Shown here one piece after another: positions 6,705 to 58,633 of a stretch of DNA of 64,000 nucleotides. This DNA comes from a candidate division TA06 bacterium JGI_Cruoil_03_38_101. Its GTDB lineage: Bacteria > Hydrothermota > UBA3072. The notes under the pieces were generated by a model. The model searched no databases and had not been told where the DNA came from. It was given only the letters and a program-made list of their open reading frames with translations. The stretch spans positions 8,049 to 72,048 of the forward strand of contig NGFL01000063.1 of NCBI GenBank assembly GCA_002215665.1. The letters are read 5' to 3'. Each line of letters opens with the position of its first letter. Within the stretch, counting starts at the first letter, position 1. The position numbers were made by a program, and so were the translations under genes.

Positions 6705-6706
6705 AA

Positions 6707-13363: not shown

Positions 13364-13462
13364 GCTTTGTGGAGAATTAATTTCTTACCTTGATAATTAT
13401 TAGGATAATATTAATATCATCCAAAGAATGATGTGATTTAGTTAGATAAAAGGAGAAAACGA

Positions 13463-14701
13463 ATGAAAAGAGTTGGTATTATAACAAAAGGTAGTAGCGA
13501 AATGATGCGAAAATCTTTTGAGAATACATTTTACAAATTCATGGAAAAACCAGAACCGAGATTCGATGAGGATTTTGGCATTTATGTTCATGTTCCATTC
13601 TGTCCAACAAAATGTTCTTTCTGCCCTTTTTATAAAGAATTATTCGCTGAAGAATTGAAAGAACAATATATGGAGGCAATTTGTGGGGAAATAGAAGAAA
13701 CAGATATGGAGGGACAATCAAGATGGGTTTATTTTGGGGGTGGGTCTCCAAATACTTTAACAATAGATGAGTTAGGGAGAATAGTTGGTTGCTTTGAGAG
13801 TAAAGTTAAAATAGAGGAAATGGGTATTGAATTACTGCCGATATTTGTAAGCTTTGAGTATTTAAGGGGTCTTAAAGAATGCGGATTCACAAAAATAAGT
13901 ATAGGGGTTGAGAGTTTTTCTAAAGAGGTAATATGTAAAACAGGGAGAAAAACTTCCACTTATGAGCATTTAAAGCAAATTATTGAGTTTGCTCGATCTC
14001 TTGGGTTATGGGTAAATGTGGATATGATGGTCGGTCTTCCAGATCAAGATTCAAACATATTTAGAAAGGATATTCAAAGGATAGCAACAATTTATCCTGA
14101 TCAGATAACTATATATCCATTTATGGTTATAGGAAGAATGAAGGCAACCCCTGGTATACCTGCAGATGAACAGTTTCAGCTCATTGAAGAAGTTGGAGAG
14201 AGATTATCTAAAAATGGTTATGGTAGAAAGGGCGTCTGGACTTTTACTCTCGGAGACGATATTTACGATTCCTCAAGAGATGAACTGACTGAGGATTATG
14301 CTGGATTCGGACCATCCGCTTTCTCAACTTATGGAAACTGGAAAGTGGTAAATCCTGAAATAGAAGTCTATCTTAAGGATTTTGAAAATGGCAAGAAAAT
14401 GGGATTTGTTGCCAAAAAGAGTAAAGCAAGCGATGAATGGAGAAAATTTGCGAGGATGATTTACGATCTGAGATACGATAATAGTTTTGAGTTTCCGTTT
14501 TATATTAAGTCTTTTATCTCCCTTATGAAACTTACAGGGTATATTAAAGGGGAAAGTCTAACTGAGAAAGGCAAGATTTTCGCTCATAAGATAACCAAAA
14601 CCGTTGTGGAATCCCTACCATTTCCAATCCAGAAACCTGATTGTATCGAAAATTACAATGAATACATTTCGTATAAAAACACCATCCTAACTTCAAATTA
14701 A
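13463..14701 (+). CDS. Radical SAM protein, HemN/HemW (coproporphyrinogen III oxidase-like) family
   Basis: 412 aa; CPTKCSFCPF CxxxCxxC motif near the N-terminus; overall HemN-like length. Confidence 0.7.
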   Translation: MKRVGIITKGSSEMMRKSFENTFYKFMEKPEPRFDEDFGIYVHVPFCPTKCSFCPFYKELFAEELKEQYMEAICGEIEETDMEGQSRWVYFGGGSPNTLTIDELGRIVGCFESKVKIEEMGIELLPIFVSFEYLRGLKECGFTKISIGVESFSKEVICKTGRKTSTYEHLKQIIEFARSLGLWVNVDMMVGLPDQDSNIFRKDIQRIATIYPDQITIYPFMVIGRMKATPGIPADEQFQLIEEVGERLSKNGYGRKGVWTFTLGDDIYDSSRDELTEDYAGFGPSAFSTYGNWKVVNPEIEVYLKDFENGKKMGFVAKKSKASDEWRKFARMIYDLRYDNSFEFPFYIKSFISLMKLTGYIKGESLTEKGKIFAHKITKTVVESLPFPIQKPDCIENYNEYISYKNTILTSN

Positions 14702-34152: not shown

Positions 34153-34184
34153 AAAAAGGGACAGCCCAGCTGTCCCTTTTTTAT
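34152..34184. terminator. Rho-independent terminator shared by groEL (+) and the converging minus-strand operon
   Basis: A-run, perfect hairpin GGGACAGC-ccagc-TGTCCC (34158-34176), then TTTTTT. Confidence 0.75.
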
Positions 34185-34924
34185 TAGCTCTTCGCAATAT
34201 ATAGAATTCTTTTAGTGAATCGATCAACTCTTGAATGTTCAAAACACTTAAAGGTTCCCTGAATGGAAAAACCTGAAGACTCGAGCCCCTCTCTTATCTT
34301 ATCCTCGGTATACCCCCTCTCCCTGTGTATCTCATCCACCCTTGACCATCCATTATCCTTTTTTATATAGAGAGTTAGATGAAGAGTTAGTATTCTTTCC
34401 TTTTCGTCATAAGCATTTCTCCAAACGCTTATAAGGTTTGTATTATCCTTTCTAACATCTCTTTCCAATACGGTCTTTAAACCGTAAGGTGTGTTTAAAT
34501 CGAATATAAAATGCCCCCCTGGTAAAAGGGATTCCTTAATTGAATCAAAGGCCGCGAGTAGATCATTGTAGTCCAGAATATAGTTCAAAGAATCAAAAAT
34601 TGATATTACGAGATTGAAGTGACCCGCAAAAGGAAGGTTCCTGGCATTAGCCTGGACGAAAAATAAGTCCGATCTTTTCCTCTTTGCGACTTCAAGCATT
34701 TCAAAAGAGCCATCAGCCCCTATTATAGAGCTTAAACCCGTCTCAACAAAAGGTATAGTTGAGTTTCCCGTTCCACAGGTAACATCGAGTAGAGAAGACA
34801 TCTGAACATCATAAAGATCGGCAATATCAAGGATATAATGAATCCAACCCTCATAATCCACATCTTTCATAAGATCATCATAGTACCCGGCTATTTTACT
34901 GAAGGATTTAGTCAAACTGTTCAT
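34184..34924 (-). CDS. Class I SAM-dependent methyltransferase
   Basis: 246 aa; motif I LDVTCGTGNSTIPF; last gene of the coupled operon (overlaps upstream gene by 17 nt). Confidence 0.8.
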   Translation of the reverse strand: MNSLTKSFSKIAGYYDDLMKDVDYEGWIHYILDIADLYDVQMSSLLDVTCGTGNSTIPFVETGLSSIIGADGSFEMLEVAKRKRSDLFFVQANARNLPFAGHFNLVISIFDSLNYILDYNDLLAAFDSIKESLLPGGHFIFDLNTPYGLKTVLERDVRKDNTNLISVWRNAYDEKERILTLHLTLYIKKDNGWSRVDEIHRERGYTEDKIREGLESSGFSIQGTFKCFEHSRVDRFTKRILYIAKS

Positions 34925-35693
34925 ATAGGATCTTTCCTTCCTCTATCTTAAATTGCCCAGCATCTATTTTTGGTATGAAGGGAAGATAACCTCTTTCCAC
35001 CATATCGGATAGAGATTTGGGATAGTATCCCTTATCTCGCTGAAACTTCATCGCCTGATCCCTTAACACCTTCATTATTCCTTTTATTGCCTTTTCTCTG
35101 AAGATCTTACTCGCTGACATATTGTAAAGTTGCAGATAGAGTCGGAGCGTAACTTCAACCCCCTTACCAAGAGATAAAGTCCAAGTTGCAAACTTAAGGG
35201 CTATTTCTGGAGAGTTCTCTTTGTATGAAGAGATAAGAAACCATTTGGATGCTTCTTTGTAATCTTTTGTATAGAGGTAATAAATAAAACCCTTTGTAAA
35301 TGGAATCTCCCAATATGTCGGATTTTTATATAGACCCTTATCCAGTAATTTTATACCAAGGTCTATCCTCTTTGCATCATCTGAGAGAAGCATTGACCCG
35401 AGGGTATAGGCAGGGATAAACTGAGGATCAAGGTCGGTTAATACTTCGAGTATGTGATAAAGATAATGATAACTCCTATCGCTCATGCGATGCTTACCAT
35501 AGTAAACCCCTGTTTCTATCCAAATAAAGTCAGCAAAAAGATTATCAAAACCAGAGGTAATTCCCTGAACGAACTTGCCCGAAGGGAAAAATAAGAGCTC
35601 TTCTCCCTTTACCCCTGGAATCCATTTAAATCCTTTTATCTCTACAAAAACTAATAGAACAATCAAGGTAATAAGGACTGCTGACCTCTTCAT
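34908..35693 (-). CDS. Hypothetical exported protein with signal peptide and TPR-like helical repeats
   Basis: 261 aa; N-terminal signal MKRSAVLITLIVLLVFVEI; helical repeats rich in Y/W/K; no family recognised. Confidence 0.5.
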   Translation of the reverse strand: MKRSAVLITLIVLLVFVEIKGFKWIPGVKGEELLFFPSGKFVQGITSGFDNLFADFIWIETGVYYGKHRMSDRSYHYLYHILEVLTDLDPQFIPAYTLGSMLLSDDAKRIDLGIKLLDKGLYKNPTYWEIPFTKGFIYYLYTKDYKEASKWFLISSYKENSPEIALKFATWTLSLGKGVEVTLRLYLQLYNMSASKIFREKAIKGIMKVLRDQAMKFQRDKGYYPKSLSDMVERGYLPFIPKIDAGQFKIEEGKILYEQFD

Positions 35694-36457
35694 AGATATT
35701 CTTTCTTAGAGTAGAGAAATGAAGAGATGAGAATGAGAATCGTTGAATAAAGAATCGAATAGGAGAAAGCCAAGAGGTAAGAATTTATTGATATTGGAAG
35801 ATGGTAGACCACCGAGGGTTTTACATTAAAAACTGAGAAATTAGGTAGAATGAAATATAAAAAGTTGACCAACCATGAAAAGTTAGATAAATTCATCATC
35901 ACAACAAGTTCTTTGAGATAATGAGTTAGGTGGCCTATAAAGAAAATAAGCAGAGTGAGTATTCCGGAAGTAAAGGGCGAAGTAAAGCAGGAAAGAAAAA
36001 CAGCCACAGCATCAAGGAGTAAGAATTCGAAAAGATAGAAATAGAGGACATTCAAAAGATACCAATCAACCCTCCCCAAGTAAAATCTGGTAAACAGGAA
36101 GAAGATGGCAAAAAGAATGAACTGAACAACTATTATAAGATAGTATAATCCAAAGAATTTTCCCGAGATAAACTCGAGGTCTGTTACTGGTTTTGTCATA
36201 ATTGAATAGATCGTTTTTCTTTCTATCTCCTGATAAAGGATGCGAGTCCCAATGAAAGTGACGATGAGAACTTCAAAGATTTCGACCATGCTAACCCCAA
36301 AATCTTTTATTATCTTTGCTCCCTGTCCAATTGATATTGGGACAAAAATCTTAGAAGAAGCTAAAAATATAAATCCCAATATTACAAGAGAAAGAAGGAT
36401 CTTATCTCGAAGGGATTCTTTAAATGTATTCTGAGCAATGGCTAAAACCTTATTCAT
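35690..36457 (-). CDS. ABC-2 family transporter permease
   Basis: 255 aa, six predicted TM segments, overlaps the ATPase gene by 8 nt. Confidence 0.7.
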   Translation of the reverse strand: MNKVLAIAQNTFKESLRDKILLSLVILGFIFLASSKIFVPISIGQGAKIIKDFGVSMVEIFEVLIVTFIGTRILYQEIERKTIYSIMTKPVTDLEFISGKFFGLYYLIIVVQFILFAIFFLFTRFYLGRVDWYLLNVLYFYLFEFLLLDAVAVFLSCFTSPFTSGILTLLIFFIGHLTHYLKELVVMMNLSNFSWLVNFLYFILPNFSVFNVKPSVVYHLPISINSYLLAFSYSILYSTILILISSFLYSKKEYL

Positions 36458-37358
36458 TTATTGCCTTCATGAAGTGTTCTTCAAGAGTTAATCTTACAGG
36501 AACGATTGAGATTATTTTTCCTCCCCTTTCAATAATTTCTTTTATCACTTTGTCTCTTTTAGTTTCTTCTCTCAAGCGAAGATATATCACTTTACCTTCA
36601 CTTCTCACCTCACCATATTTTTCGAGATATCCAGATTCAGGGAATCTCTCAATCATAATCTCTATATATCTAATATCGCTTTTTAAGATCTCTCGAATAG
36701 AGCCAACTTTCTTTAGCTTCCCATTGAGGATTATCCCGACTTTACTGCAGATGGCCTCCACATCAGAAAGAATGTGAGATGAGAATAGAATCGTTTTACC
36801 CTTACTTTTCTCTCCCTCAATTAGATCCTTAATTTCTCTTCTACCAATGGGATCCAGACCTGATAATGGTTCATCTAAAATGAGAAGTTCCGGGTCGCCT
36901 ATGAGAGCCTGGGCAAAACCTATTCTCTGGACCATTCCCTTTGAATAACTGGAAATCCTCTTACCCATACTATCTTTGAGCCCTACTACTTCGAGTTTTT
37001 CTTTTATTTCATTATCATTGAGATTCTTTCCATATAATCTTGCATAGAACTGAAGCAATTCCTTACCTGTTAGATGGCGATAAAAGGAAGGGTTCTCAGG
37101 CAAAAAGCCAATTCTCCTTCTTGCTTCCTTAGGAACGTATTTCCCAAAAAGGGTCACCTTGCCCGAAGTTGGCTTTAAGAGACCTCCTATGATCTTTAAA
37201 GTCGTCGTCTTACCCGCGCCGTTTGGCCCAAGAAGCCCAAATATTTCACCTTTTTCAATTTCAAAATCAAGACCATTTACTCCGATAGATTTCTTCATCA
37301 AAAATGGGGATTTATATATCTTAACGAGTGATTTAATCTCAACTATGATCATTCCCAT
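36450..37358 (-). CDS. ABC transporter ATP-binding protein (ABC-2 exporter type, with C-terminal accessory domain)
   Basis: 302 aa; Walker A GPNGAGKTTT, signature LSGLDP-type, Walker B ILDEP, H-loop; extra ~80 aa C-terminal domain. Confidence 0.9.
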   Translation of the reverse strand: MGMIIVEIKSLVKIYKSPFLMKKSIGVNGLDFEIEKGEIFGLLGPNGAGKTTTLKIIGGLLKPTSGKVTLFGKYVPKEARRRIGFLPENPSFYRHLTGKELLQFYARLYGKNLNDNEIKEKLEVVGLKDSMGKRISSYSKGMVQRIGFAQALIGDPELLILDEPLSGLDPIGRREIKDLIEGEKSKGKTILFSSHILSDVEAICSKVGIILNGKLKKVGSIREILKSDIRYIEIMIERFPESGYLEKYGEVRSEGKVIYLRLREETKRDKVIKEIIERGGKIISIVPVRLTLEEHFMKAINE

Positions 37359-38458
37359 ATTCCTGCGACCTCATTTCCACAACTTGGACATTTATTGTTC
37401 TTTATCTTATTCACAATCACTGAGAAACCGCGTCTTTTTATCAGTAATTCCCCACAGGAAGGGCAATAGGTGTTGGATCCAGGATGATCTATTGCTACAT
37501 TGCCTACATAAGAGTAATGAATACCCATCTCAAGAGCCAGTTTTCTTGCATCTTCTACAGTTTTTAAAGGAGTGGGAGGAAGGTTTTCCAGTTTATAGGT
37601 TGGGAAAAACCTTGAAAAATGTATCGGGACATCCTTCCCTAAATTATCAAGGACCCACTCAATCATCTTTTTTATCTCCTTTCTCTCATCATTTATTGTT
37701 GGAACGATAAGATAGGTTATCTCCAACCACACTCCACCTTCTTTCAACCTCTTCAGGGTATTGAGGACTGGCTCTAAGGAGCCAGCAGAGACTTCCAAAT
37801 ATTCCTTATTTTCAAAAAACTTAAGATCTATATTTGCCCCATCGAGAAAAGGTATCAATTCAAGAAGTGGTTTCTTTTGAAGATAACCATTTGAGTGATA
37901 AATATTCTTTATTCCTTTTTCCCGGGCAAGTTTAGCAGAGTCAATCATATACTCAATGAAAATTGATGGTTCAGTATAGGTATAAGCTATTGAACTGATG
38001 TCGTATTTTCTTCTATAATAGATTACATTTTCCATTAAGAGTTCAGGAGGCAATTCATAATTTCTTGTCCACTCAGGTCGAACCTGTGATATACTGTAAT
38101 TTTGGCAGTATTTACAATGGAAGTTGCAACCTGCTGTAGCAATTGAGAAAGCAAAAGTTCCCGGGAGGAAATGGTAGAGAGGTTTCTTTTCCATTGGGTC
38201 AAGGTGGACTGCGCAGGGGTTACCATACACAAGAGTATATAACTTTCCTCCTCTATTCTCGCGTGCTCTACAAAACCCCCTTTCTCCGTCTTTTAATATA
38301 CATTTATGCGGGCAATTCTGGCATTGAACTATGCCTCCCTCCATTTTTACCCAATAAGAAGCTATACGAGGTTTAATATAACCTCTGGTTTCAGTATCTT
38401 TTGCCCTTAGTGTTAGAGGAAGGAGTGCCAGCGTCTTTAAGAATTCTCTTCTATCCAT
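37349..38458 (-). CDS. AmmeMemoRadiSam-type (AmrS/PflA-like) radical SAM enzyme with N-terminal twin-arginine-like signal peptide
   Basis: 369 aa; N-terminal MDRREFLKTLALLPLTLRA; AmrS-type N-domain ASYWVKMEGGIVQCQNCPHKCIL..GFCRAREN; radical SAM CNFHCKYCQN; HFSRFFPTYKL; C-terminal CPSCG...CPSCG. Confidence 0.8.
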   Translation of the reverse strand: MDRREFLKTLALLPLTLRAKDTETRGYIKPRIASYWVKMEGGIVQCQNCPHKCILKDGERGFCRARENRGGKLYTLVYGNPCAVHLDPMEKKPLYHFLPGTFAFSIATAGCNFHCKYCQNYSISQVRPEWTRNYELPPELLMENVIYYRRKYDISSIAYTYTEPSIFIEYMIDSAKLAREKGIKNIYHSNGYLQKKPLLELIPFLDGANIDLKFFENKEYLEVSAGSLEPVLNTLKRLKEGGVWLEITYLIVPTINDERKEIKKMIEWVLDNLGKDVPIHFSRFFPTYKLENLPPTPLKTVEDARKLALEMGIHYSYVGNVAIDHPGSNTYCPSCGELLIKRRGFSVIVNKIKNNKCPSCGNEVAGIWE

Positions 38459-38610
38459 TTATAGGATATTAACTAATATTACTCTCTTGTCAAGAATTTC
38501 AGTAGTAGAAAAGCTCAAAGTCCGAAAGTTTTAGCGACTAACATCGCAGTTACACTTATAATGCCAACCGTGAAGTTGTCGTTTAATCCTATCTGCACTC
38601 ATTACCATTT

Positions 38611-41464: not shown

Positions 41465-42004
41465 CTATAAACATCTATCCTCTTTTCTCATCTTTATTGT
41501 TACAAATGCGCCTTCTCCATAACCATCATGGATTTCATCAACCCCTTTAAGTTCTGAAGGTTGATGGAAAAGAGTCTGTTTTATATCGGGTTTCCTGAAA
41601 CCATTTTTTTTAAGTTTTTTAAGAACTTCACTTGTGGAGTAAAACTTGGCTATAGAATAGAATGGACTCTCTTCTTTTCTATCCATATAAAGCTTTCCTA
41701 AAAAACTCTTTCGGTTAATAAAACCTAAAATTATACTTCCTCCATGGTTTAATATTCTCCAAGACTCTATAAATGTTTTTTCAATGTCAAAAACGAAGCA
41801 AATTGTTGTTGTAATTAAAACAAAATCAAAAGAACAAGAGGCAATGGGGAGTTTTTCAGCTACACCCAGGGAAACGATTATCCCTCTCTTTTTAGCCATC
41901 CTGGCCATAGAAAGTGAAGGGTCAACACCTATTTTTATCCCAAGAGGTTTTGCAAATCTTCCAGAACCAACACCAATTTCAATTCCTCTTCCCCTGATCT
42001 GCAA
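41465..42004 (-). CDS. Class I SAM-dependent methyltransferase (Methyltransf_11-like); reading frame extends ~35 codons upstream to ~42111 without a canonical start
   Basis: Motif I IEIGVGSGRF only 8 aa after the track's first codon (TTG); upstream in-frame sequence ...YDRWFERNRFAYLSELEALKAL looks like a genuine MT N-terminus. Confidence 0.7.
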   Translation of the reverse strand: MQIRGRGIEIGVGSGRFAKPLGIKIGVDPSLSMARMAKKRGIIVSLGVAEKLPIASCSFDFVLITTTICFVFDIEKTFIESWRILNHGGSIILGFINRKSFLGKLYMDRKEESPFYSIAKFYSTSEVLKKLKKNGFRKPDIKQTLFHQPSELKGVDEIHDGYGEGAFVTIKMRKEDRCL

Positions 42005-42123: not shown

Positions 42124-42432
42124 CTAACCCAGCCTTATTGCTTTAACCGGACAGGCAGCAACACAGATGCCACAACCCGTGCATTTTGTCTTATCAATCT
42201 TTGCGGTTTCATTTATAGAAATAGCATTAATAGGACATTGGTTGACACAAATCCCGCATCCTGTGCATTTTTCCTTATCAACAATAGCTTTTTGTTGCTT
42301 AATAGTTATCTGTCTTTGAGGTGGGGAAACCCTGTTTACTGGCTCTTGAAAGAACCTACTTCTCCCTCTACCCAAACCTCTACCAGTTCCTGGACCCTTT
42401 CCCATTGGACCTGTTCCATCTCCTCTTGGCAT
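42124..42432 (-). CDS. DUF5320-like Gly/Arg-rich N-terminal domain fused to 2x[4Fe-4S] ferredoxin
   Basis: 102 aa; MPRGDGTGPMGKGPGTGRGLGRGR N-terminus; two CxxCxxCxxxCP motifs (CTGCGICVNQCP, CTGCGICVAACP); strong SD AAAGGAGG. Confidence 0.65.
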   Translation of the reverse strand: MPRGDGTGPMGKGPGTGRGLGRGRSRFFQEPVNRVSPPQRQITIKQQKAIVDKEKCTGCGICVNQCPINAISINETAKIDKTKCTGCGICVAACPVKAIRLG

Positions 42433-48984: not shown

Positions 48985-49974
48985 ATGGATGTTGATCTAC
49001 AAAGTCTAAATAGGGAAATCAAAGAAAAGAGTGCCCTTATAGAAACTCTCCTTGCAGAGATTGGTAAAAGCATTATAGGACAGCAGGAAATTATAGAAAA
49101 AATAATTATAGGGCTTCTTACAAGAAGTCATATCCTGATTGAGGGTGTCCCGGGTCTTGCTAAGACCTATATTGTTAAGACTCTTGCATCATCTGTGAAT
49201 GCTGCCTTTAAGAGGATTCAATTTACCCCGGATCTCCTGCCTGCTGATATAACAGGAACAGAGATATACAACTATCAAACTGGTTCCTTTACACCCAAAA
49301 AAGGGCCTCTTTTTGCAAACTTCGTACTCGCAGATGAGATAAACAGAGCACCTCCAAAGGTTCAAAGCGCACTTCTTGAAGCAATGCAGGAGCGCCAGGT
49401 CACTATTGGAGACACCTCTTACCCTCTTCCTGAACCTTTTATGGTCCTCGCAACCCAGAACCCCATTGAACAGGAAGGAACATATCCTCTTCCCGAAGCT
49501 CAGGTAGACCGTTTCAAACAGAAGGTTATCATTACCTATCCCAACAAAGAAGAGGAAAAACGAATCATGAAACAGCAAACCTCAGAGGAACTGCCAGTAA
49601 CAACTCCTGTAATAGATATCCAGGAATTGAACGAGCTAAGAAGTATCGTCTATCGGGTACACTCAGATGAAAAGATAAGAGACTACATTCTCGATATCGT
49701 CTTTGCTACCAGGCAACCCTCGGAGTATGGTCTCAAAGATCTTGGTGTTTATATCCGATATGGGGCATCACCAAGGGCTTCTATCTATCTTTTTGAGAGT
49801 GCACGAGCTCACGCATTTATTGAGAGGCGGGGTTTTGTCATACCTGAGGATGTAAAGGCAATGGTTTTCGATATCCTCCGTCATAGAATAATCCTCTCCT
49901 ATGAGGCTGAAGCAGAGGGTATAACCGAAGAGGATATAATAAGAGAGATAGTAGAAGCGATAGAGGTCCCCTAA
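48985..49974 (+). CDS. MoxR-family AAA+ ATPase
   Basis: 329 aa; Walker A GVPGLAKT, Walker B LADEINRA, typical MoxR length. Confidence 0.9.
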   Translation: MDVDLQSLNREIKEKSALIETLLAEIGKSIIGQQEIIEKIIIGLLTRSHILIEGVPGLAKTYIVKTLASSVNAAFKRIQFTPDLLPADITGTEIYNYQTGSFTPKKGPLFANFVLADEINRAPPKVQSALLEAMQERQVTIGDTSYPLPEPFMVLATQNPIEQEGTYPLPEAQVDRFKQKVIITYPNKEEEKRIMKQQTSEELPVTTPVIDIQELNELRSIVYRVHSDEKIRDYILDIVFATRQPSEYGLKDLGVYIRYGASPRASIYLFESARAHAFIERRGFVIPEDVKAMVFDILRHRIILSYEAEAEGITEEDIIREIVEAIEVP

Positions 49975-49981
49975 TTGCCTA

Positions 49982-50866
49982 ATGGAAGAACGGCTAAGAG
50001 AGATTCTTAAGGAGGTCAGGGAGATAGAAATCGAGTCAAAGAAGGTGGTCAATACCCTCTTTGGCGGAGAATACAAAAGTTCTTTCAAGGGGAGGGGGGT
50101 TGAATTTCACGAAGTTCGAGACTACTTTCCAGGGGATGATATAAGGACAATCGACTGGAACGTGACAGCAAGGATGAACCATCCCTTTGTAAAAAGATTC
50201 ATAGAAGAGAGGGAACTCACCATCCTTATCATTGCAGATTGTAGCGGTTCGGGTGAATTCGGAAGTAGGAAAGAACAAAAAAAGGACCTTATAGCCAGGA
50301 TATCTGCTCTCTTTTCCTTCTCTGCAATAAAGAACAACGATAAGGTTGGTCTCATACTTTTTTCAGATAAGGTTGAACATTATCTCCCTCCAAGAAAAGG
50401 AAGGGCGCATACCCTCCATCTAATCCGCGATATTCTCGTGTTTTCTCCTGAAAGTAGAGAAACCGATCCCGTTCCGGCGATGGAATTCTCTATAAACATC
50501 TTGCCCCATGGGGCAATAGTTCTTCTCGTCTCAGATTTTATTGGCAGGGGTTTTGGAGTTGAACATATAAGGATGCCTTTATCCCTTATGGCGAAGAAGT
50601 TTGACCTTATTCCACTCATCGTTCGTGATCCCTTCGAGGTGAATCCAGACCTTCCAGGAAGGATAATGCTTAAAGATGCAGAGAGCGGAGAAATCCAGAT
50701 GTTTAAAGGGAGGGAGTTGAAGGGAAAATTTATAGAAATTCGAGATGCCAGAGATGAAAAGCTGCACCGTTTGTTTAATATAAATGGTCTTGACCGTATC
50801 CATATTACCTCAGGTGAAGACTACATCGCTGCAATTCACCGTTTATTTCAGAGGAGACTTCCTTGA
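49982..50866 (+). CDS. DUF58 domain protein (MoxR-associated, VWA-like)
   Basis: 294 aa; DYFPGDDIRTIDWNVTAR...ILIIADCSGS. Confidence 0.85.
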   Translation: MEERLREILKEVREIEIESKKVVNTLFGGEYKSSFKGRGVEFHEVRDYFPGDDIRTIDWNVTARMNHPFVKRFIEERELTILIIADCSGSGEFGSRKEQKKDLIARISALFSFSAIKNNDKVGLILFSDKVEHYLPPRKGRAHTLHLIRDILVFSPESRETDPVPAMEFSINILPHGAIVLLVSDFIGRGFGVEHIRMPLSLMAKKFDLIPLIVRDPFEVNPDLPGRIMLKDAESGEIQMFKGRELKGKFIEIRDARDEKLHRLFNINGLDRIHITSGEDYIAAIHRLFQRRLP

Positions 50867-51642
50867 TTATTTTATTTCTATTTTCCACATCCATTCAGGT
50901 TACCCCTGATTCTGCAACAGTCGGGGATTCTCTCACCGCTACATTGAAAGGAGAGATTATCGATTCTATCTCCATAATCATTCCAGATTCTTTTCCAGAT
51001 ATAATAATCCTGGATAGTCTGGAGAAAGAAGGGGATAGCATTCGGAGAATCAAATTTACATCCTTTTCAACAGGGCCTCAGGATTTTCGGGTTGGAATAA
51101 GGAAGGACACTTTAACCGGGAGTTATTTCATCCAATCAGCCCTCGGTCCGAAGAATAAAGGTCTTTCACCAATTTGGGGCCCCTATGGATTCTTTAACTG
51201 GCATTATCTCTTATGGTGTCTCCTCCTCCCTATTGGGCTCTTTGGATATTGGGTCATAAGAAGAAGAAAAGGTGAAGAAGTATTTATTAAGGAGGAAGAG
51301 CTAGAGCCAGGTGAAGAGGCTTTGAAGAATCTCAAAAAACTGGAAGAGAAAGTGGATGTATGGAACTGGAATAAACTTTATACTTCACTCTCTTATACAG
51401 CAAGGCGATATATTGAAAGAAAGGCTGGAATTCCGGCTGTTGAAGCCACAACTTCAGAACTTCTAAAGCTGATAAAGAGGGGTGGAAGTAGAGTATTTTC
51501 TCCCCTTGCCTCTCGATTTCCAAACTGGGATTTAATCAAATTCGCAGATGAAAAGTCCAATCCAGAAGTTTTCAAAGAGGATATAAAATCTACACGTTCG
51601 GTTGTCAAAGAAATGGAAAAAGAAGATGATTCACTTTCATAA
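50863..51642 (+). CDS. Hypothetical membrane protein of Bat operons (DUF4381-like)
   Basis: 259 aa; single central TM (LLWCLLLPIGLFGYWVIRRRK); positional equivalent of DUF4381 between DUF58 and BatA. Confidence 0.5.
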   Translation: MIILFLFSTSIQVTPDSATVGDSLTATLKGEIIDSISIIIPDSFPDIIILDSLEKEGDSIRRIKFTSFSTGPQDFRVGIRKDTLTGSYFIQSALGPKNKGLSPIWGPYGFFNWHYLLWCLLLPIGLFGYWVIRRRKGEEVFIKEEELEPGEEALKNLKKLEEKVDVWNWNKLYTSLSYTARRYIERKAGIPAVEATTSELLKLIKRGGSRVFSPLASRFPNWDLIKFADEKSNPEVFKEDIKSTRSVVKEMEKEDDSLS

Positions 51643-52600
51643 TCCATTCTACCTTCTTGGTTTACTCCTTGTAGCCCTGCTCTATTTTTTCCTTAGGAGA
51701 AGGGAAAAACCCTCCATTCTTTACTCTGATACCTCCTGGCTTGGGATTAAGCCTTTGAATAAGTTCTATGCCAATCTAAGTGAATATTTACTCCTTATAG
51801 TTTTGGCGTTTATTTTTCTTGCTCTCACCCGTCCACAGAGGGGTTATGAATCGGAGATTATTGAAAAGAAAGGCATAGATATTGTTCTCACCCTTGATGT
51901 ATCGGGCTCTATGAGGGCAGTGGATTTCAAGCCAAATAATAGATTAACAGTCGCAAAAAAACTGGCTTCTGAGTTTGTTCAGAAGAGAGCCGGGGATCGG
52001 ATCGGTCTGGTTGCATATGCGAGGGAGGCTTTAATTCAATCACCTCTCACTCTGGATCATAAGGTGGTGAAGGATCTCATTGAGAGCCTTGATTTTGGTA
52101 TGCTTGAAGATGGCACAGCAATAGGAATGGGTATTTCCTTTGGAACTTTTCTTTTTTCAAATTCCACGTCTAATAATAAGGTAATGATCCTCCTCACAGA
52201 TGGAATAAACAACGCAGGAAAGATTGACCCTGAAACTGCAGCAAAAAATGCCAGGGATGCCGGTATAAAGATTTATGCTATAGGCATTGGCAAGAGAGGT
52301 GAAGTTCCTTACCCTGTTAGGATCGGGATTGGAGGCACTCGTTATGTAATGACTAATTTTGAAATCAATGAGGAGGGGCTTCGAAAGATAGCGAATGAGA
52401 CCGGAGGGGAATACTTTCGTGCTACATCGCCCGAGGCTCTAAAAAATGTTTACCAGAGGATAGGTAAGATGGAAAAGACAACATTTAAAGTTGAAAGGAT
52501 TGTAAAATATAAGGAAAGAGTGGATTATGTTTTTATTTCTGCCATTCTTTTATTCCTGATCTTCTTCACCGACCCGATAGTGAGCAGGAAGATACCATGA
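51602..52600 (+). CDS. batA: VWA domain-containing protein BatA
   Basis: 332 aa; N-terminal TM pair, MIDAS DVSGSM, VWA fold. Confidence 0.8.
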   Translation: MSKKWKKKMIHFHNPFYLLGLLLVALLYFFLRRREKPSILYSDTSWLGIKPLNKFYANLSEYLLLIVLAFIFLALTRPQRGYESEIIEKKGIDIVLTLDVSGSMRAVDFKPNNRLTVAKKLASEFVQKRAGDRIGLVAYAREALIQSPLTLDHKVVKDLIESLDFGMLEDGTAIGMGISFGTFLFSNSTSNNKVMILLTDGINNAGKIDPETAAKNARDAGIKIYAIGIGKRGEVPYPVRIGIGGTRYVMTNFEINEEGLRKIANETGGEYFRATSPEALKNVYQRIGKMEKTTFKVERIVKYKERVDYVFISAILLFLIFFTDPIVSRKIP

Positions 52601-53586
52601 ACTGGGCAAGACCAATTTTCCTCCAATTTCTTTGGTTTGTTCCATTAGCAATATTCTTTATATTTTACAGGAGGCAAAGAAATAAAAAATTACTTAAGAA
52701 AATTGCAGATTTAAAGCTCCAAAAGGTTATTTGGAAGCAGGATATAAGGAAGTCAGGATTGAGAGAAGGCCTAATCGTCCTTTCATTTATTTTTCTTATT
52801 TTAGCATCTGGAAGACCAAGGTGGGGAAGGGAGATATCTATTACCCAGGCTAAGGGCTATAATATCGTTTTCGCTCTTGATGCTTCATCCAGTATGCTTG
52901 CAGAAGATGTTCAACCAAATAGGCTCCAGAAAGCTAAGGAGTCCATAAAGGTTGCTATAAGTCAACTTCCCGGAAGTCGTTTTGGACTCGTCGCTTTTTC
53001 TGGAGAAGCTTATAAACTCTGTCCCCTGACGACGGATAGGAATTCCTTTAAACTTTTTATCGATTTAGTTGAACCCAATCTCATACCATCGGAGGGAACC
53101 GATATTGGAGCGTCCATAAGAAAATCTACTGAACTCTTTTCAGATAAGATGAGTGGATCCAAGATAATAATCCTTGTAACTGATGGAGAGAATACAAGAG
53201 GAGATCCAAGGGTGGATGTTCTTAATGCACGTAAAGAGAGGATAAAGGTCTTCACAATATCAGCAGGAACAAAGGAAGGGGCTCCAATTCCCCGTTTTGA
53301 CTCTACAGGGAAATTTGTAGAGTACTTAAAAGAGGATAATGAAAAGACCCATATCTCTATTGTGAATGAGGATCTTTTGAAGAGTATTGCAGATGCAGGT
53401 GATGGAGCTTTCCTCCAGGGAGAAGGCGTTGAAATGGGTCTCCTTATAAGGTTATTCAAAGGGTTAAAAAGGGGTGAATTTTCCAGGGAGAAGGTTGAAC
53501 ATTACAAGGAAAAATATATATTTTTCCTGATACCATCACTTATCTTTCTCATTTCTGGAATACTAATAGAGACAGGAAAGAGATGA
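52597..53586 (+). CDS. batB: VWA domain-containing protein BatB
   Basis: 329 aa; N-terminal TMs, MIDAS DASSSM, C-terminal TM. Confidence 0.8.
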   Translation: MNWARPIFLQFLWFVPLAIFFIFYRRQRNKKLLKKIADLKLQKVIWKQDIRKSGLREGLIVLSFIFLILASGRPRWGREISITQAKGYNIVFALDASSSMLAEDVQPNRLQKAKESIKVAISQLPGSRFGLVAFSGEAYKLCPLTTDRNSFKLFIDLVEPNLIPSEGTDIGASIRKSTELFSDKMSGSKIIILVTDGENTRGDPRVDVLNARKERIKVFTISAGTKEGAPIPRFDSTGKFVEYLKEDNEKTHISIVNEDLLKSIADAGDGAFLQGEGVEMGLLIRLFKGLKRGEFSREKVEHYKEKYIFFLIPSLIFLISGILIETGKR

Positions 53587-54152
53587 TTATACTTTTGTTG
53601 CTTATATCCTTAAATATTTCGCCAATTGTAAACAAGGCTAACAAGTTATATGAGAAAGAGAAATACGAAGAGGCTTACGAACTTTATAAAAGGGCTTCTA
53701 TCCTGGATCCCGAGAATAAGAAGATAAAGTTTAACTTGGCCGATTGTGCTTATAAGTTGAAACGATTTAGAGAAAGTGCTGATGGATTCGTAAGGCTTTC
53801 TGGAGCAAAGGATGAAACTCTGAAAGAGAAAAGTTTTTATAACCTCGGAAATACATTTATGGGTGTAAAGCAATATGAAGAGGCGATCTCCGCTTATAAA
53901 AAAGCTCTCCTTCTCAACCCAAATGATACCAGGGCAAAGAGAAATCTGGAAATTGCAAAGTTGATGTCAAAGAATCAAAAAAAAGAAAATAAGGAAGAAA
54001 AGAAGAACAAAAAAGAAAAGAAGAAACAGGAACAAAAGCTGCAGCCACAAAGCCGCAATATAAACGAAGCTTTAAAGAATGAACAGAAGGAAACAATGAA
54101 AAAGGCTTTGAAAAAAAGAGGGGGCAGGAGAAAGGTAGCAGGGAAATGGTGA
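53583..54152 (+). CDS. batC: TPR-repeat protein BatC with Lys/Glu-rich tail
   Basis: 189 aa; three TPR-like repeats; low-complexity K/E-rich C-terminus. Confidence 0.65.
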   Translation: MIILLLLISLNISPIVNKANKLYEKEKYEEAYELYKRASILDPENKKIKFNLADCAYKLKRFRESADGFVRLSGAKDETLKEKSFYNLGNTFMGVKQYEEAISAYKKALLLNPNDTRAKRNLEIAKLMSKNQKKENKEEKKNKKEKKKQEQKLQPQSRNINEALKNEQKETMKKALKKRGGRRKVAGKW

Positions 54153-55831
54153 TAATCTTTTTACTTTCCCTTACTTTTACTGCATCTCTTGATAGAATAG
54201 TCGTTTCTGTAGGGGAGTCCTTTTTGGTGTCTGTGAGTGTCAGCGGGGAGGATCTTTCTGGAGTGGGAGAGCCCTCACCCCCATCAATGGACAAGGTTGA
54301 TATCATTGGAACGTCCAGTTCGCACTCAACTCAGATTCAAGTTATTAATGGAAAGATAACAAGATCAACATCTTTAAACTATGAGTATCAAATGGTCGCT
54401 TTAGATGAGGGGGAATTCACAATTCCTTCCTTTAACCTGGAGTATAAGGGAAAGAAATATTCCACAGAACCTATAAAGATTACTGTAAAGAAAACCACAA
54501 CTAAAACTTCGATACCAGAGGTACAAAGGGAAACCCGGGGCACCGAGAAGGAAAGTTCAAAGAAAGTATTCCTTGAGTGCAACATATCTAAAAATTCTGT
54601 ATATTTAGGAGAGCCTGTAGTCGTCAGCTATTATCTTTACACGAGGGTAAACCTTACCGATGTAAGTCTAAGGAGTCTTCCAGGTTATAAAGGAGTTTGG
54701 GTTGAAAACATTTCATCCCCTCAAAGGTTAAATTTCGAGCAAACTCTTCTAAATGGTATTACTTATTCCAAGGCTTTAATAAAAAAGGATCTTATATTTC
54801 CCCTTAAAAAGGAGAGAATAAGGATTGAGCCTCTAACGATGCAGATTACCTTTGGAGGAGATATATTTTCCCTCTTCGGGGAAACAAAAATAATATCCAC
54901 ACAGCCTAAAATCATAAATGTTAAATCATTTCCAAAAGCCCAGGTTCAGGGATTCATCGATGCAGTAGGAAAATTTAGTCTCTCTGCAGAGCTGGATACC
55001 TCCGAGAGTGAAGTAGGAACACCATTTCCCTTGAAGATAAAAATAAAGGGTGAAGGGAATCTTAGTTTCTTATCCCCCCTTAAACTTCCAGAAATAAGAA
55101 AGTTGAAAGCTTTTAAGCCTGAGTCCAAAGGGAATACAGAGGTAAAGGAAAATACAATCAAGGGGGAGCGCATAATTACCTACCTCCTTGCACCTGAGGA
55201 AGCAGGGGTCATCCAGATTCCACAGATAAACTGGGCTTATTTTGATCCAGAAAGAGAGGTCTTTGTAAGAAAGAGTATAGGTCCCTGGATTATAAGGGTA
55301 AATCCTGCGATGAAAAAAGAGAAGGTAGAAAAGAGTAGAAGTGAAGATATTGCCTACATCAAGCCTGTTGGCAATAAATTTGTTCCTCTTATTCCACGAT
55401 TCTTTCCTCTTTACCTTTTTCTCCCAACTATCATCCTTGCACTATCAGGATATTATGTCTGGGAAAGGAAAAAGATCCTGGGAGATAGCGGATACGCCAG
55501 AATCAAATCTATACCGGCCGAACTCAAGAGAGGTTTTCAGAATCTAAAGAGGGAAGTTGAAGAAAATAGAGTAGAATTTTTCTATGAGGAATTGACCCGA
55601 CTTCTCCTGAAGTTCCTTAAATTGAGGTTCGATATAAATACATTTAGTATGAAAAGAGATGAATTACTTGGAGAATTACAGAATGAGAATGTATCAGATG
55701 AGGTTCTTCCCTGGATACAACAAATACTGCAGAAGAGCGAAGAAGTTCGTTTTGCATCCGTTTTCCCAGATAAGGAAGAGATGCAAGAGGATTTAAGGAG
55801 ATTAGAGGAGATAATTCGTGTTCTACATTAG
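54146..55831 (+). CDS. batD: BatD-like protein
   Basis: 561 aa; N-terminal signal, beta-rich ectodomain, C-terminal TM (FFPLYLFLPTIILALSGYYVW) plus cytoplasmic tail; position after BatC. Confidence 0.6.
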   Translation: MVIIFLLSLTFTASLDRIVVSVGESFLVSVSVSGEDLSGVGEPSPPSMDKVDIIGTSSSHSTQIQVINGKITRSTSLNYEYQMVALDEGEFTIPSFNLEYKGKKYSTEPIKITVKKTTTKTSIPEVQRETRGTEKESSKKVFLECNISKNSVYLGEPVVVSYYLYTRVNLTDVSLRSLPGYKGVWVENISSPQRLNFEQTLLNGITYSKALIKKDLIFPLKKERIRIEPLTMQITFGGDIFSLFGETKIISTQPKIINVKSFPKAQVQGFIDAVGKFSLSAELDTSESEVGTPFPLKIKIKGEGNLSFLSPLKLPEIRKLKAFKPESKGNTEVKENTIKGERIITYLLAPEEAGVIQIPQINWAYFDPEREVFVRKSIGPWIIRVNPAMKKEKVEKSRSEDIAYIKPVGNKFVPLIPRFFPLYLFLPTIILALSGYYVWERKKILGDSGYARIKSIPAELKRGFQNLKREVEENRVEFFYEELTRLLLKFLKLRFDINTFSMKRDELLGELQNENVSDEVLPWIQQILQKSEEVRFASVFPDKEEMQEDLRRLEEIIRVLH

Positions 55832-56540
55832 CCTTTTTCTTTTATTTTTTTCTACATCTAAATCTGAAGAATATTACAAGAATGGTTTATATGGAGAGGC
55901 ATTAAAAGAATATACTCAATATCTAAAGGAGGGTATTTCCAATCCTGAGTTATATCTGAATATTGGCAATTGTTATTACAGGATGGATAAGTTTGGGGAA
56001 AGTCTTCTTAACTACAGAAGAGGTTGGTTCTTATCCCCTAACGATCCCAATATCCGCCATAATATTTCACTCTTCAGGGAACAAAAAGAAAGTCCCAATC
56101 CTTTCATCTCATTTACCTCTGGTGTGATTGATCGAATCTCCCTGAGGGATTTTTCCTATCTACTAATCTTTTCCTTTACAATCCTTATTATCATTGGGTC
56201 TATTAGAATGATTCAATCGGTTAGGCCCATTAGATTCCCCACCACTCCCCTCTTTTTTATTATTGGAATAATATTCATTTTCTCCCTGAGTGGCTTTTCG
56301 ATCTGGCAGGGAAGAGTTCAATCCAACTGGGTCGTTTTTACTGAGTCGACAATTGCCCATAGTGGACCTGGAGATCAATTTAAGGATCTTATGACTGTAG
56401 ATGAAGCAGAGGAGGGATCCCTTATCAGAGAGGATGGTGGTTGGTGGCTTATCCAACTCTATTCTGGAGAGGGTGGTTGGGTGGATAGCTCTAGTGTCTC
56501 CCTCGTTTTAAAAGGCACTGAGGGTCTAAGGAGATATTGA
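55818..56540 (+). CDS. batE: BatE-like protein (TPR + TM + SH3b domain)
   Basis: 240 aa; N-terminal TPR, central TMs, C-terminal SH3-like domain (GWWLIQLYSGEGGWVDSSSV). Confidence 0.6.
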   Translation: MFYISLFLLFFSTSKSEEYYKNGLYGEALKEYTQYLKEGISNPELYLNIGNCYYRMDKFGESLLNYRRGWFLSPNDPNIRHNISLFREQKESPNPFISFTSGVIDRISLRDFSYLLIFSFTILIIIGSIRMIQSVRPIRFPTTPLFFIIGIIFIFSLSGFSIWQGRVQSNWVVFTESTIAHSGPGDQFKDLMTVDEAEEGSLIREDGGWWLIQLYSGEGGWVDSSSVSLVLKGTEGLRRY

Positions 56541-57234: not shown

Positions 57235-57744
57235 TTGATGAATAGAGGGTTATTACGGATTTTTGACATCTTAATAGTGATTGCTTTTATTGCTTTATTA
57301 TATATTCTGATTGAGCCTCAGTACAAAATGGCAAAAATATCAACAAAGAGAAGAAAACTCCAGGCCAATATGTTCACTGTAAAGGCTGGAATTGAAAGAT
57401 ATATATCCTTTCATAGGGGGAAATATCCCACCAACTCCCAGCAGATTTATGAGAATCTGGCAGAATTGGTAATTCCTGTTAATCCATATACAAACGAGAA
57501 AATAGAAGTTTCTGATCTTGTACAATTTAAATACGATCTCCCCATCTATGTAAAGGATAGATCCTTGGACGGAGTAAATGGAAAACAGACTGGCAAACCC
57601 GGTCAGATAGGCGTTGGTTTTTTTATCCCCATAGGGGAAGATTCTATTCCTACGAAATACGGCATTATAGGATTTGATGAGAATGGGAAATCCCTCGTAA
57701 TCAAAGAGGGGGATAAAAAAAGAGTTGTTGTATTGATCGAATAA
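57235..57744 (+). CDS. Hypothetical protein with pilin-like N-terminal helix (non-canonical prepilin signal)
   Basis: 169 aa; MMNRGLLRIFDILIVIAFIALLYILIEPQYKMA resembles the type IV pilin N-terminal helix (...AIAIPQYQ...) but lacks the canonical G/F/E5 processing motif. Confidence 0.4.
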   Translation: MMNRGLLRIFDILIVIAFIALLYILIEPQYKMAKISTKRRKLQANMFTVKAGIERYISFHRGKYPTNSQQIYENLAELVIPVNPYTNEKIEVSDLVQFKYDLPIYVKDRSLDGVNGKQTGKPGQIGVGFFIPIGEDSIPTKYGIIGFDENGKSLVIKEGDKKRVVVLIE

Positions 57745-57754
57745 ATCTTAGTTC

Positions 57755-58633
57755 TTGGAACTCTTAAAACCCGAAGTAATAGAAAAAATAGGATCCCTTA
57801 ATCTAAGGGCAAAAATAATTGTTGAAGGTTTCTTTGCTGGCTTACACCAGAGTCCCTTCCATGGATTTTCTCTTGAATTCCAAGAGCACCGTCCATATTA
57901 TCCTGGAGACCCTATTAATAAGATTGACTGGAAACTCTACGGACGGACCGATAGATATTATCTTAAAAAATATCAGGCTGAAACAAATCTCTCTGCATAT
58001 CTCCTTATAGACAAGAGTAACTCAATGGGATTTGGAGATAAAATAACAAAGTTCCATTATGCACGAACCCTTGCAGCAAGTCTTGCCTATTTACTTCTGC
58101 ACCAGAACGATTCAGTTGGGCTTGTTCTGTTTGATTCAGACATAGAGGTATTCATTCCCTCTAAGAGTCGACTCACCCATCTTAAACTCCTGCTCAAAAC
58201 ACTTACTAAATCAGAACCTTCAGAAAAAACTTCGATCACCAACGCGGCAATTAACCTTGCTTCTCTTATAAGGAAAAGAAATCTCATTATAGTACTATCA
58301 GATCTCTTAGAAGACCCGGAGGAAGTGATAAGGGCCTTAAAGCTTCTAAAGGCGAGAAAAAATGAGGTTATTGTATTCCATATTCTCGATCCAGATGAAC
58401 TGAATTTTGAATTCGGGAAAGAATCTCTCTTTAGGGATATGGAGGACGGAAGCAAAATCCCGGTTAACCCACAGAATGTCAGGGAATTATACGAGGAAAG
58501 GTTCAATCGATTCCTTGCAAGATATAGGTTGGGCTTTGCATCCAATCGAATTGATTATTCCCTGATATCAACAGTTACACCCTATTATAAAGCCCTATCA
58601 GAGTATCTCATAAAGAGAGAACGAATGTTATGA
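57755..58633 (+). CDS. DUF58 domain protein (second copy, no adjacent MoxR)
   Basis: 292 aa; GFSLEFQEHRPYYPGDPINKIDWKLYGRTDRYYLKKY...LLIDKSNSM. Confidence 0.8.
   Translation: MELLKPEVIEKIGSLNLRAKIIVEGFFAGLHQSPFHGFSLEFQEHRPYYPGDPINKIDWKLYGRTDRYYLKKYQAETNLSAYLLIDKSNSMGFGDKITKFHYARTLAASLAYLLLHQNDSVGLVLFDSDIEVFIPSKSRLTHLKLLLKTLTKSEPSEKTSITNAAINLASLIRKRNLIIVLSDLLEDPEEVIRALKLLKARKNEVIVFHILDPDELNFEFGKESLFRDMEDGSKIPVNPQNVRELYEERFNRFLARYRLGFASNRIDYSLISTVTPYYKALSEYLIKRERML

Follow-up and report, generated by a model that had tools for sequence, protein, structure and literature searches.

The subject of this analysis is a cluster of five genes on the minus strand of a 64-kb stretch of contig NGFL01000063.1, from the candidate division TA06 bacterium JGI_Cruoil_03_38_101; this stretch is called the window below, its positions serve as coordinates, and the genes are numbered ORF1 to ORF5 in order of transcription. 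They encode a radical S-adenosylmethionine (SAM) enzyme of the AmmeMemoRadiSam type (AmrS), the ATPase and the permease of an ABC-2 type ATP-binding cassette (ABC) exporter, a membrane-anchored tetratricopeptide repeat (TPR) protein and a methyltransferase. A previous reading made from the letters alone (here the sequence-only reading) had seen in them one operon that modifies and exports some small molecule or peptide, or else an extracytoplasmic maturation system. A single operon is likely in view of what follows, a common pathway is not. ORF2, ORF3 and ORF4 are an ancient, invariant module whose orthologues stand mostly among type IV pilin genes, and we hold with moderate confidence that the operon is composite, a lineage-specific join of an orphan AmrS, a pilus-type exporter trio and a generic methyltransferase.

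The probable operon and its boundaries

All five open reading frames (ORFs) were recovered where they had been placed, and the overlaps of 10, 8, 4 and 17 nucleotides (nt) between successive genes were reproduced. Sizes are given in amino acids (aa), followed by the basis of each assignment.

37349..38458, minus strand: ORF1, AmmeMemoRadiSam-type radical SAM enzyme (AmrS), 369 aa; TIGR04337, PF04055, motifs
36450..37358, minus strand: ORF2, ABC-2/DrrA-type ABC ATPase, 302 aa; PF00005 (105.8 bits), motifs
35690..36457, minus strand: ORF3, polytopic ABC-2 family permease (ABC2_membrane_2), 255 aa; PF12679
34908..35693, minus strand: ORF4, single-pass membrane-anchored TPR protein, 261 aa; structure model, no annotated family
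34184..34924, minus strand: ORF5, class I SAM-dependent methyltransferase, 246 aa; PF13649, PF08241
34153..34183, both strands: bidirectional intrinsic terminator of groEL and ORF5; sequence, RNA fold
38466..38493, minus strand: promoter-like site, TTGACA-16 nt-TAATAT; consensus scan, sequence reading

One compact transcription unit is likely, given overlaps that persist throughout a clade of related genomes, a promoter-like site and a strong terminator, and ORF1 to ORF5 are probably co-transcribed. The terminator, correctly described before as common to the operon and groEL, lies precisely between the stop of groEL (34152) and that of ORF5 (34184), the two genes being convergent; it reads A7-GGGACAGC-cca-GCTGTCCC-T7 and folds as RNA with -20 kcal/mol (z = -4.73), a value that 0 of 200 shuffled sequences equalled. 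At the other end, the promoter-like site agrees with the consensus at 10 of 12 positions and its -10 hexamer ends 7 nt before the ATG of ORF1; sites of this kind do not exceed the shuffled expectation across the region, and the one at ORF1 counts as a consensus match only. No Shine-Dalgarno sequence is visible, on reading the sequence, between this hexamer and the start codon, and the operon mRNA may be leaderless or nearly so.

Five tightly overlapping genes with a promoter-like site at one end and a strong terminator at the other invite the idea of a dedicated pathway, in which a small molecule or peptide would be modified by the radical SAM enzyme and the methyltransferase and then exported by the ABC-2 transporter with ORF4, or which would form an extracytoplasmic maturation system. 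In support of this idea, the overlaps are kept in 13-15 species-level genomes, and the junctions within the clade are near-constant (-10 or -4 nt between the radical SAM and ABC ATPase genes, -8 or -4 between the ATPase and ABC-2 permease genes, and mostly -4 between the permease gene and ORF4). Against it, overlapping genes are the default of this genome. In a greedy gene model, 30 of the 55 same-strand neighbour pairs in the window overlap, and these include plainly unrelated neighbours (cmk/acyltransferase/ispH, pyrG/cbiQ and hisS/aspS) as well as one true functional operon, formed by the Bat-type MoxR/DUF58/VWA/TPR/BatD genes (48985-56540). Since overlap is the norm in such a compact genome, the overlaps argue for co-transcription and carry little information on shared function. 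Other evidence on the pathway comes from the distribution of its parts, which is taken up below.

A NifX-like cofactor carrier had also been reported just upstream on the same strand. The gene exists (NifX/Nitro_FeMo-Co, PF02579, 38611-39078, minus strand, 152 nt from ORF1, with a charged, coiled-coil-like C-terminal tail), but it is no conserved partner: it lies next to the cluster only in the source organism (L001 and L002) and in no other species, and we do not count it as a member of the unit. A 25-codon ORF in the gap between it and ORF1 (38531-38608, minus strand, MVMSADRIKRQLHGWHYKCNCDVSR) was considered as a precursor peptide and rejected; it, too, is present in the source organism only and is probably a chance ORF.

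The exporter trio and its association with pilin genes

The assignment of ORF2 and ORF3 as an ABC-2 type ATPase and permease holds. ORF2 has its catalytic motifs intact (Walker A, YSKGM signature, Walker B and H-loop), stays under the NCBIfam cutoffs of drrA, GldA and NodI, and has as nearest solved relatives the nucleotide-binding domains of ABCA3/4/1, which are ABCA lipid exporters, and NosF. ORF3 reaches 31.1 bits with PF12679 (cutoff 27.2) and shows five hydrophobic segments above threshold, with no sequence relative in the PDB and no NCBIfam match. ORF4 had been taken for a signal-peptide protein of no recognisable family. The second part is borne out by Pfam and NCBIfam scans; the first is not, for the N-terminus resembles an uncleaved membrane anchor. 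Its structure model (predicted local distance difference test, pLDDT, 87.9) has a transmembrane helix at residues 4-22, a TPR solenoid at about 39-221 and a C-terminal helix plus beta-hairpin at 228-259, in agreement with the TPR-like nature noted earlier, the tandem helix-turn-helix repeats being predicted to form a solenoid. Members of the ORF4 family give weak matches to the TPR_16/TPR_19 models. A resemblance of the C-terminal stretch GYYPKSLSDMVERGYLPFIPK to the GspG/pseudopilin motif is a lead only; none of 21 ORF4-family members has a match to Pfam T2SSG.

The ORF4 family is large, with 506 clusters found by a word-indexed profile search and, in an exhaustive search of clusters at 50% identity, 1103 representatives at E<=1e-30, a number that rises to 3880 at E<=1e-10. 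Neighbourhoods of the trio were collected by a locus search from a 12-sequence ORF4 alignment, giving 80 species-level genome loci, to which individually fetched contigs were added. In all 67 species-level loci with enough flank, the order is ABC ATPase, ABC-2 permease, ORF4, on one strand and with fixed spacing. The loci span at least seven phyla (WOR-3, Stahlbacteria, Cloacimonadota, TA06, Eisenbacteria, Edwardsbacteria and Gemmatimonadota, plus Thermodesulfobacteriota), the closest named relatives being candidate division WOR-3 and Stahlbacteria, and the trio is kept even in a relative from Thermodesulfobacteriota with 29% identity and in a subgroup with 22-27% identity, where the two ABC genes can be fused. 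We assign the source organism itself to candidate division WOR-3.

Outside one clade, most of these trios lie among pilin genes. PF07963 N_methyl genes are directly upstream in L005, L007, L010, L094 and L095, and a Peptidase_A24 gene is directly downstream in L005. On one WOR-3 scaffold (L043) the order is response regulator, pilin, pilin, ABC ATPase, ABC-2 permease, ORF4, PilD, and on another (L038) it is ABC-2 permease, ORF4, four pilin-like genes, PilM-like gene. In L094, of a distant subgroup, a single fusion protein of 519 aa (5442-7001) combines ATPase and permease; two N_methyl pilin genes come before it and the ORF4 homologue comes after it. Among loci without AmrS and with both flanks present, an ORF with the pilin motif or a prepilin peptidase (PilD) occurs within 4.5 kb of the trio in 24/33, which is a lower bound since the strict motif misses degenerate pilins; the background rate of the motif is 1 in 1379 ORFs.

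In the window itself, tblastn shows an ORF of 169 aa without a Pfam match (57235-57744, plus strand) to resemble a minor-pilin-like protein from L038 (E = 1.5e-8). The hydrophobic helix at its N-terminus is pilin-like but lacks a canonical cleavage site (G|FTLIE), and the ORF carries a 'GKYP...L..L.IPVNP' motif that resembles the C-terminus of ORF4.

The arrangement of the pilin-linked trios recalls Myxococcus xanthus, where PilG/H/I are described as an ABC-exporter complex; their genes share a transcript with pilA, and pili depend on them (PMC3546991, PMC3724824). PilI (in myxobacteria and Bacteriovorax) is an ABC2_membrane_2 protein, PilH is ABC_tran and PilG is domain-less, and in Anaeromyxobacter a TPR_16/TPR_19 protein is encoded directly beside PilI (PMC6060248 supplement). 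The trio has the same composition (ABC_tran, ABC2_membrane_2 and a domain-less accessory protein), ORF2 being PilH-like and ORF3 PilI-like by Pfam content, and the orthologous trios of sister lineages share the position seen in pilA-pilGHI-pilD, after one or more pilin genes and before the prepilin peptidase. There are also differences. The trio of the window is flanked by AmrS and the methyltransferase, not by pilin genes and PilD, so that its own locus does not qualify as a pil cluster, and its accessory gene is the last of the three, while in Myxococcus pilG heads the set; ORF4 may match the TPR_16/TPR_19 protein of Anaeromyxobacter instead of PilG. We regard the window trio as an orthologue of the pilin-linked module and not as a pil-cluster gene set, and we liken it to PilGHI by Pfam composition and position without claiming membership of that family.

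Two other groups of proteins invite comparison. The TPR pilotins of type IV pili, PilF/PilW and Tgl, are outer-membrane lipoproteins, whereas ORF4 has an N-terminal transmembrane anchor, no lipobox and an extra C-terminal beta-hairpin. The gliding transporter GldA/F/G and NosD/F/Y share the three-gene logic of ATPase, permease and accessory protein (ORF2 scores 203.5 bits against GldA and 174.5 bits against NosF), but in place of GldG or the NosD beta-helix the window has a TPR protein as accessory component. Membership of ORF2 in GldA/GldF/GldG was considered and set aside, its 203.5 bits falling well below the TIGR03522 equivalog cutoff of 402.6, and neither ORF3 nor ORF4 matches any NCBIfam model.

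Because most lineages have the trio between prepilin genes and the gene of the prepilin peptidase, or beside minor pilins and PilM-like genes, it most likely acts like Myxococcus PilG/H/I, as an exporter complex needed at the inner membrane to handle type IV pilin or to build the pilus. ORF2 and ORF3 would constitute a type V (ABC-2) exporter, in which a dimer of the ORF2 ATPase would drive the polytopic ORF3 permease by ATP hydrolysis, while ORF4, docked by its transmembrane helix, would project a peptide-binding TPR solenoid into the periplasm and serve as an adaptor that contacts pilin or the pilus assembly machinery. What had looked like an oddity of Myxococcus is thus seen more widely: a module of ABC ATPase, ABC-2 permease and TPR protein is tied to type IV pilin genes in many phyla, and its unannotated TPR partner, whose family numbers about 1100 clusters of 50% identity at E<=1e-30, makes a definite candidate for the way in which an ABC exporter contributes to pilus biogenesis.

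Glycans and lipids are the typical cargo of ABC-2/type V exporters, and the trio could also be read as an envelope glycan or lipid exporter (Wzm/Wzt-like, ABCA-like or like Geobacter Xap) that is merely located near pilus genes, the methyltransferase of the window's clade then methylating the exported sugar or lipid. The ABCA lipid exporters among the nearest solved relatives of ORF2 would suit such a cargo, as would the glycosyltransferase genes that follow the trio in L007 and L010, and dTDP-aminosugar N,N-dimethyltransferases are, at a weak 39-44 bits, the characterised proteins of solved structure nearest to ORF5. However, pilins and PilD, not glycosyltransferases, are the commonest and closest neighbours of the trio, ORF3 belongs to ABC2_membrane_2 and not to the Wzm-type PF01061, and the methyltransferase is absent from all pilin-linked loci. 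The known systems bear on both sides of the question. In Geobacter, about 50% of exopolysaccharide depends on xapD (GSU1501), which encodes an ABC ATPase and lies near pilA (PMC5585712, 10.1101/114900), but the xapD mutant is also without detectable PilA (bioRxiv 10.1101/114900); M. xanthus pilGHI mutants are exopolysaccharide-negative, yet this defect is explained as a consequence of the missing pili. We liken the xap cluster of Geobacter sulfurreducens to the trio by position, as a pilin-adjacent ABC exporter with xapD a few genes downstream of pilA, and the Thermodesulfobacteriota locus L007 does read pilins, ABC ATPase, ABC-2 permease, ORF4, TPR protein, glycosyltransferase. The xap cluster differs in its label in the literature, that of a sugar/polysaccharide exporter, while the cluster in the window has no adjoining glycosyltransferases. 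Taken together, these points make a glycan or lipid exporter a fairly unlikely explanation of the trio.

AmrS, its usual partners and a possible extracytoplasmic location

The lead gene had been recognised as an AmmeMemoRadiSam-type enzyme, and a profile search confirms this, with 350 bits against TIGR04337 (AmmeMemoSam_rS, cutoff 220) over residues 34-369 of ORF1 and positions 2-334 of the 349 in the profile. The radical SAM cluster motif CX3CX2C is present as CNFHCKYC at residues 111-118, its Cys columns being invariant in our alignment A3, and is accompanied by an N-terminal set of four Cys (C46/49/53/63) and a C-terminal CxxC...CxxC zinc ribbon. Beyond TIGR04337, the Pfam and NCBIfam libraries yield only Radical_SAM (PF04055) and Fer4_12, besides a PFL-activase-like similarity. 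In tblastn, PilD weakly matched the zinc ribbon (E = 0.004), which we put down to generic CxxC similarity.

A radical SAM gene next to an exporter might suggest a cluster for ribosomally synthesised and post-translationally modified peptides (RiPPs), with the enzyme as peptide maturase. This was rejected: the Pfam and NCBIfam scans detected no SPASM/twitch domain and no RiPP recognition element in ORF1, and there is no conserved small ORF upstream of the radical SAM gene, such as a precursor peptide would require, among the 20 clade loci.

The usual partners of AmrS are missing from the window as well. The AmmeMemoRadiSam system comprises the TIGR04337 radical SAM enzyme, an AMMECR1-domain protein (TIGR04335) and a Memo-like protein (TIGR04336). 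ORF1 is a clear member of the first family, but the two others are absent from the window, as had been noted before (best tblastn E = 1.0 in the 64 kb), and were not found within +/-8 kb of any AmrS-linked clade locus either. Elsewhere the partnership is common. We counted the neighbours of AmrS relatives at 44-56% identity in 80 metagenome loci, 49 of which extend at least 1.5 kb on either side. Memo and/or AMMECR1 lies within 5 kb in 30/49, usually as an adjacent Memo-AMMECR1 fusion; ABC, ORF4 and methyltransferase genes accompany AmrS at only one of the 49 loci, and that one is from the source organism's own clade. In a PVC group locus (L092), AmrS overlaps a Memo-AMMECR1 fusion by 4 nt. 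AmrS also stands alone among housekeeping genes, for instance in WOR-3 and Cloacimonadota (L091, L093, L176, L177).

ORF1 begins with MDRREFLK, which contains a perfect twin-arginine core (DRREFLK) of the kind used in twin-arginine translocation (Tat), and the motif is kept in the clade. The following h-region is short, at about 9-10 residues (TLALLPLTL), and below every threshold for a transmembrane segment; in this clade it is unusually short. Among the 120 nearest AmrS protein clusters, which come from WOR-3, Cloacimonadota, Omnitrophica, Chloroflexota and the PVC group, 82 have an RRx## motif and 68 the strict form RRxF[LIVM][KRQ], so that the Tat-type N-terminus appears to be a trait of this AmrS subfamily. 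The Memo-AMMECR1 ORFs that adjoin these genes (loci L092 and L098-L174) have a hydrophobic leader in 29 of 37 cases, several of them with a lipobox-like L-x-A/G-C, as exemplified by MKKIHSIILGILAIFIFIIFHQSPAQS in L092 and ...VILSACSS in L108.

Because AmrS has a Tat motif and its Memo-AMMECR1 partners have signal or lipoprotein leaders, the sequences suggest that the whole AmmeMemoRadiSam triad of this subfamily could be exported or membrane-anchored, facing outward, an idea that we flag here and do not consider established. These leaders, a twin-arginine signal on the radical SAM enzyme and signal or lipoprotein-type leaders on the partners, set the subfamily apart, and no paper in the literature searched describes them. 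A radical SAM enzyme in the periplasm would be unusual, as SAM and a reductant would be needed outside the cytoplasm. The literature that we searched contained nothing useful on AmrS function or export, no mention of an extracytoplasmic triad and no precedent for a periplasmic radical SAM enzyme. If real, export of AmrS and Memo-AMMECR1 would bear on the function of AMMECR1 and Memo, as a possible clue to where they act.

How AmrS and the methyltransferase may have come to the trio

AmrS precedes the trio in 13 of the 53 loci with enough upstream flank, and none of these 13 has a pilin or PilD gene nearby. In the ORF4 tree the AmrS-linked loci form one clade, while the pilin-linked lineages are its sisters and outgroup, which means that the AmrS linkage arose once and that the pilin linkage is ancestral; AmrS occupies the very slot that pilin genes hold in the sister lineages. 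ORF5 was rightly called a class I methyltransferase, with matches to PF13649 and PF08241 and motif I as LLDVTCGTG, and its nearest solved relatives are 1Y8C and 3D2L, both of unknown function, ahead of the aminosugar methyltransferases mentioned above. A methyltransferase gene follows ORF4 in the inner clade only (10 of the 12 AmrS-linked loci with downstream flank); in the outer loci L026-L028, AmrS and the trio are followed instead by a different ORF of 158-159 aa. The range over which the methyltransferase is found is exactly that over which synteny with groES/EL is kept. Since groES and groEL are unrelated to the cluster, conservation over this same range reflects shared ancestry rather than selection for a pathway.

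These distributions speak against the five-gene pathway. The exact arrangement of radical SAM gene, ABC genes, ORF4 and methyltransferase is confined to one clade, and the trio occurs without the radical SAM gene or the methyltransferase across many phyla. Outside the clade each part keeps other company, AmrS relatives adjoining Memo or AMMECR1 and the trio adjoining pilins or PilD at the frequencies given above, which is largely the outcome that the sequence-only reading had itself named as speaking against a conserved pathway. The pathway would have to be reconciled, moreover, with the absence of the methyltransferase from the AmrS-linked sub-clade L026-L028, with a groES/EL pair conserved over precisely the methyltransferase range, and with the lack of a precursor-like ORF and of SPASM or RiPP-recognition domains. 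It can draw on the persistence of the AmrS-trio linkage down to about 46% ORF4 identity, and on the Tat motif of ORF1 together with a periplasm-facing ORF4, which could place both proteins outside the cytoplasm. All considered, we regard a dedicated modify-and-export or maturation pathway of five genes as distinctly unlikely. With this a false lead is removed, and a more general caution follows: overlapping genes in the compact genomes of candidate phyla should not be read as pathways before their conservation has been checked over long range.

Under the composite reading, pilin genes would have become separated from the trio in one WOR-3/Stahlbacteria clade; a roaming Tat-type AmrS, whose usual partner is a Memo-AMMECR1 fusion, would have landed directly upstream of the trio and would have been co-transcribed with it since; and ORF5, a small-molecule-type methyltransferase, would have joined later, in an inner sub-clade. 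ORF1 and ORF5 would on this account be functionally independent of the trio. What is new in this locus is a pilus-type ABC/TPR module that has been uncoupled from pilins and stands in an operon with an orphan AmrS.

Several observations weigh against the composite reading or against the pilus role that it gives to the trio. Neither a pilin nor PilD lies within 4.5 kb in 9 of the 33 loci without AmrS, nor within +/-8 kb of the trio anywhere in the AmrS-linked clade, and the sole pilin-like gene of the window, the degenerate ORF at 57235-57744, is about 20 kb away from it. The glycosyltransferase genes that adjoin the trio in L007 and L010 fit a glycan or lipid cargo, and the fold of ORF4 cannot be told apart from generic TPR domains. 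Finally, the junction between the radical SAM and ABC genes (-10 or -4 nt) is kept throughout the clade, down to about 46% ORF4 identity; of the arguments left for some functional tie between AmrS and the trio, so old and stable a junction is the strongest.

Such a tie could take more than one form. In the narrower one, a Tat-exported AmrS would depend on the exporter, for example for the supply of SAM or substrate, or would modify pilins or other clients bound to ORF4, the trio standing in for Memo/AMMECR1 in this clade. The conserved -10 nt junction, the Tat motif conserved in the clade, the leaders on 29 of the 37 partners of related AmrS, the position of AmrS in the pilin slot and the failure to find Memo/AMMECR1 within +/-8 kb of any clade locus all fit this. 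Yet the case is purely positional, the h-region of the clade is unusually short for a Tat signal, other Tat-type AmrS genes have no ABC trio nearby, and a periplasmic radical SAM enzyme was without precedent in the literature searched; we consider such a tie highly improbable. In the bolder form, AmrS would have been recruited, along with the methyltransferase, to the pilus-type ABC/TPR module for a periplasm-facing radical-SAM modification and export of pilin or another envelope client, the AmmeMemoRadiSam triad of the subfamily being outside the cytoplasm. This we hold to be very unlikely; if true, it would provide the first localisation clue for a conserved system and would make ORF1 an unprecedented periplasmic radical SAM enzyme.

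Some other genes of the window deserve a brief mention. At 42124-42432 (minus strand) lies the gene of a small 2x[4Fe-4S] ferredoxin whose N-terminus is Gly/Arg-rich and DUF5320-like, adjoined at 41465-42004 (minus strand) by a truncated-looking class I methyltransferase with a TTG start and weak DVU_1556-family similarity. The Bat-type (Bacteroides aerotolerance-like) operon at 48985-56540 (plus strand) consists of genes for a MoxR AAA_3 protein, DUF58, one unassigned ORF, two VWA proteins, TPR, BatD and a TPR/SH3 protein, with six consecutive gene overlaps, and a second DUF58 and BatA-N pair lies downstream of it (57755-60237, plus strand). A second radical SAM protein, of 412 aa, is encoded at 13463-14701, directly after two glycosyltransferase genes, GT4 and GT2 (11400-14701 for the whole group, plus strand).

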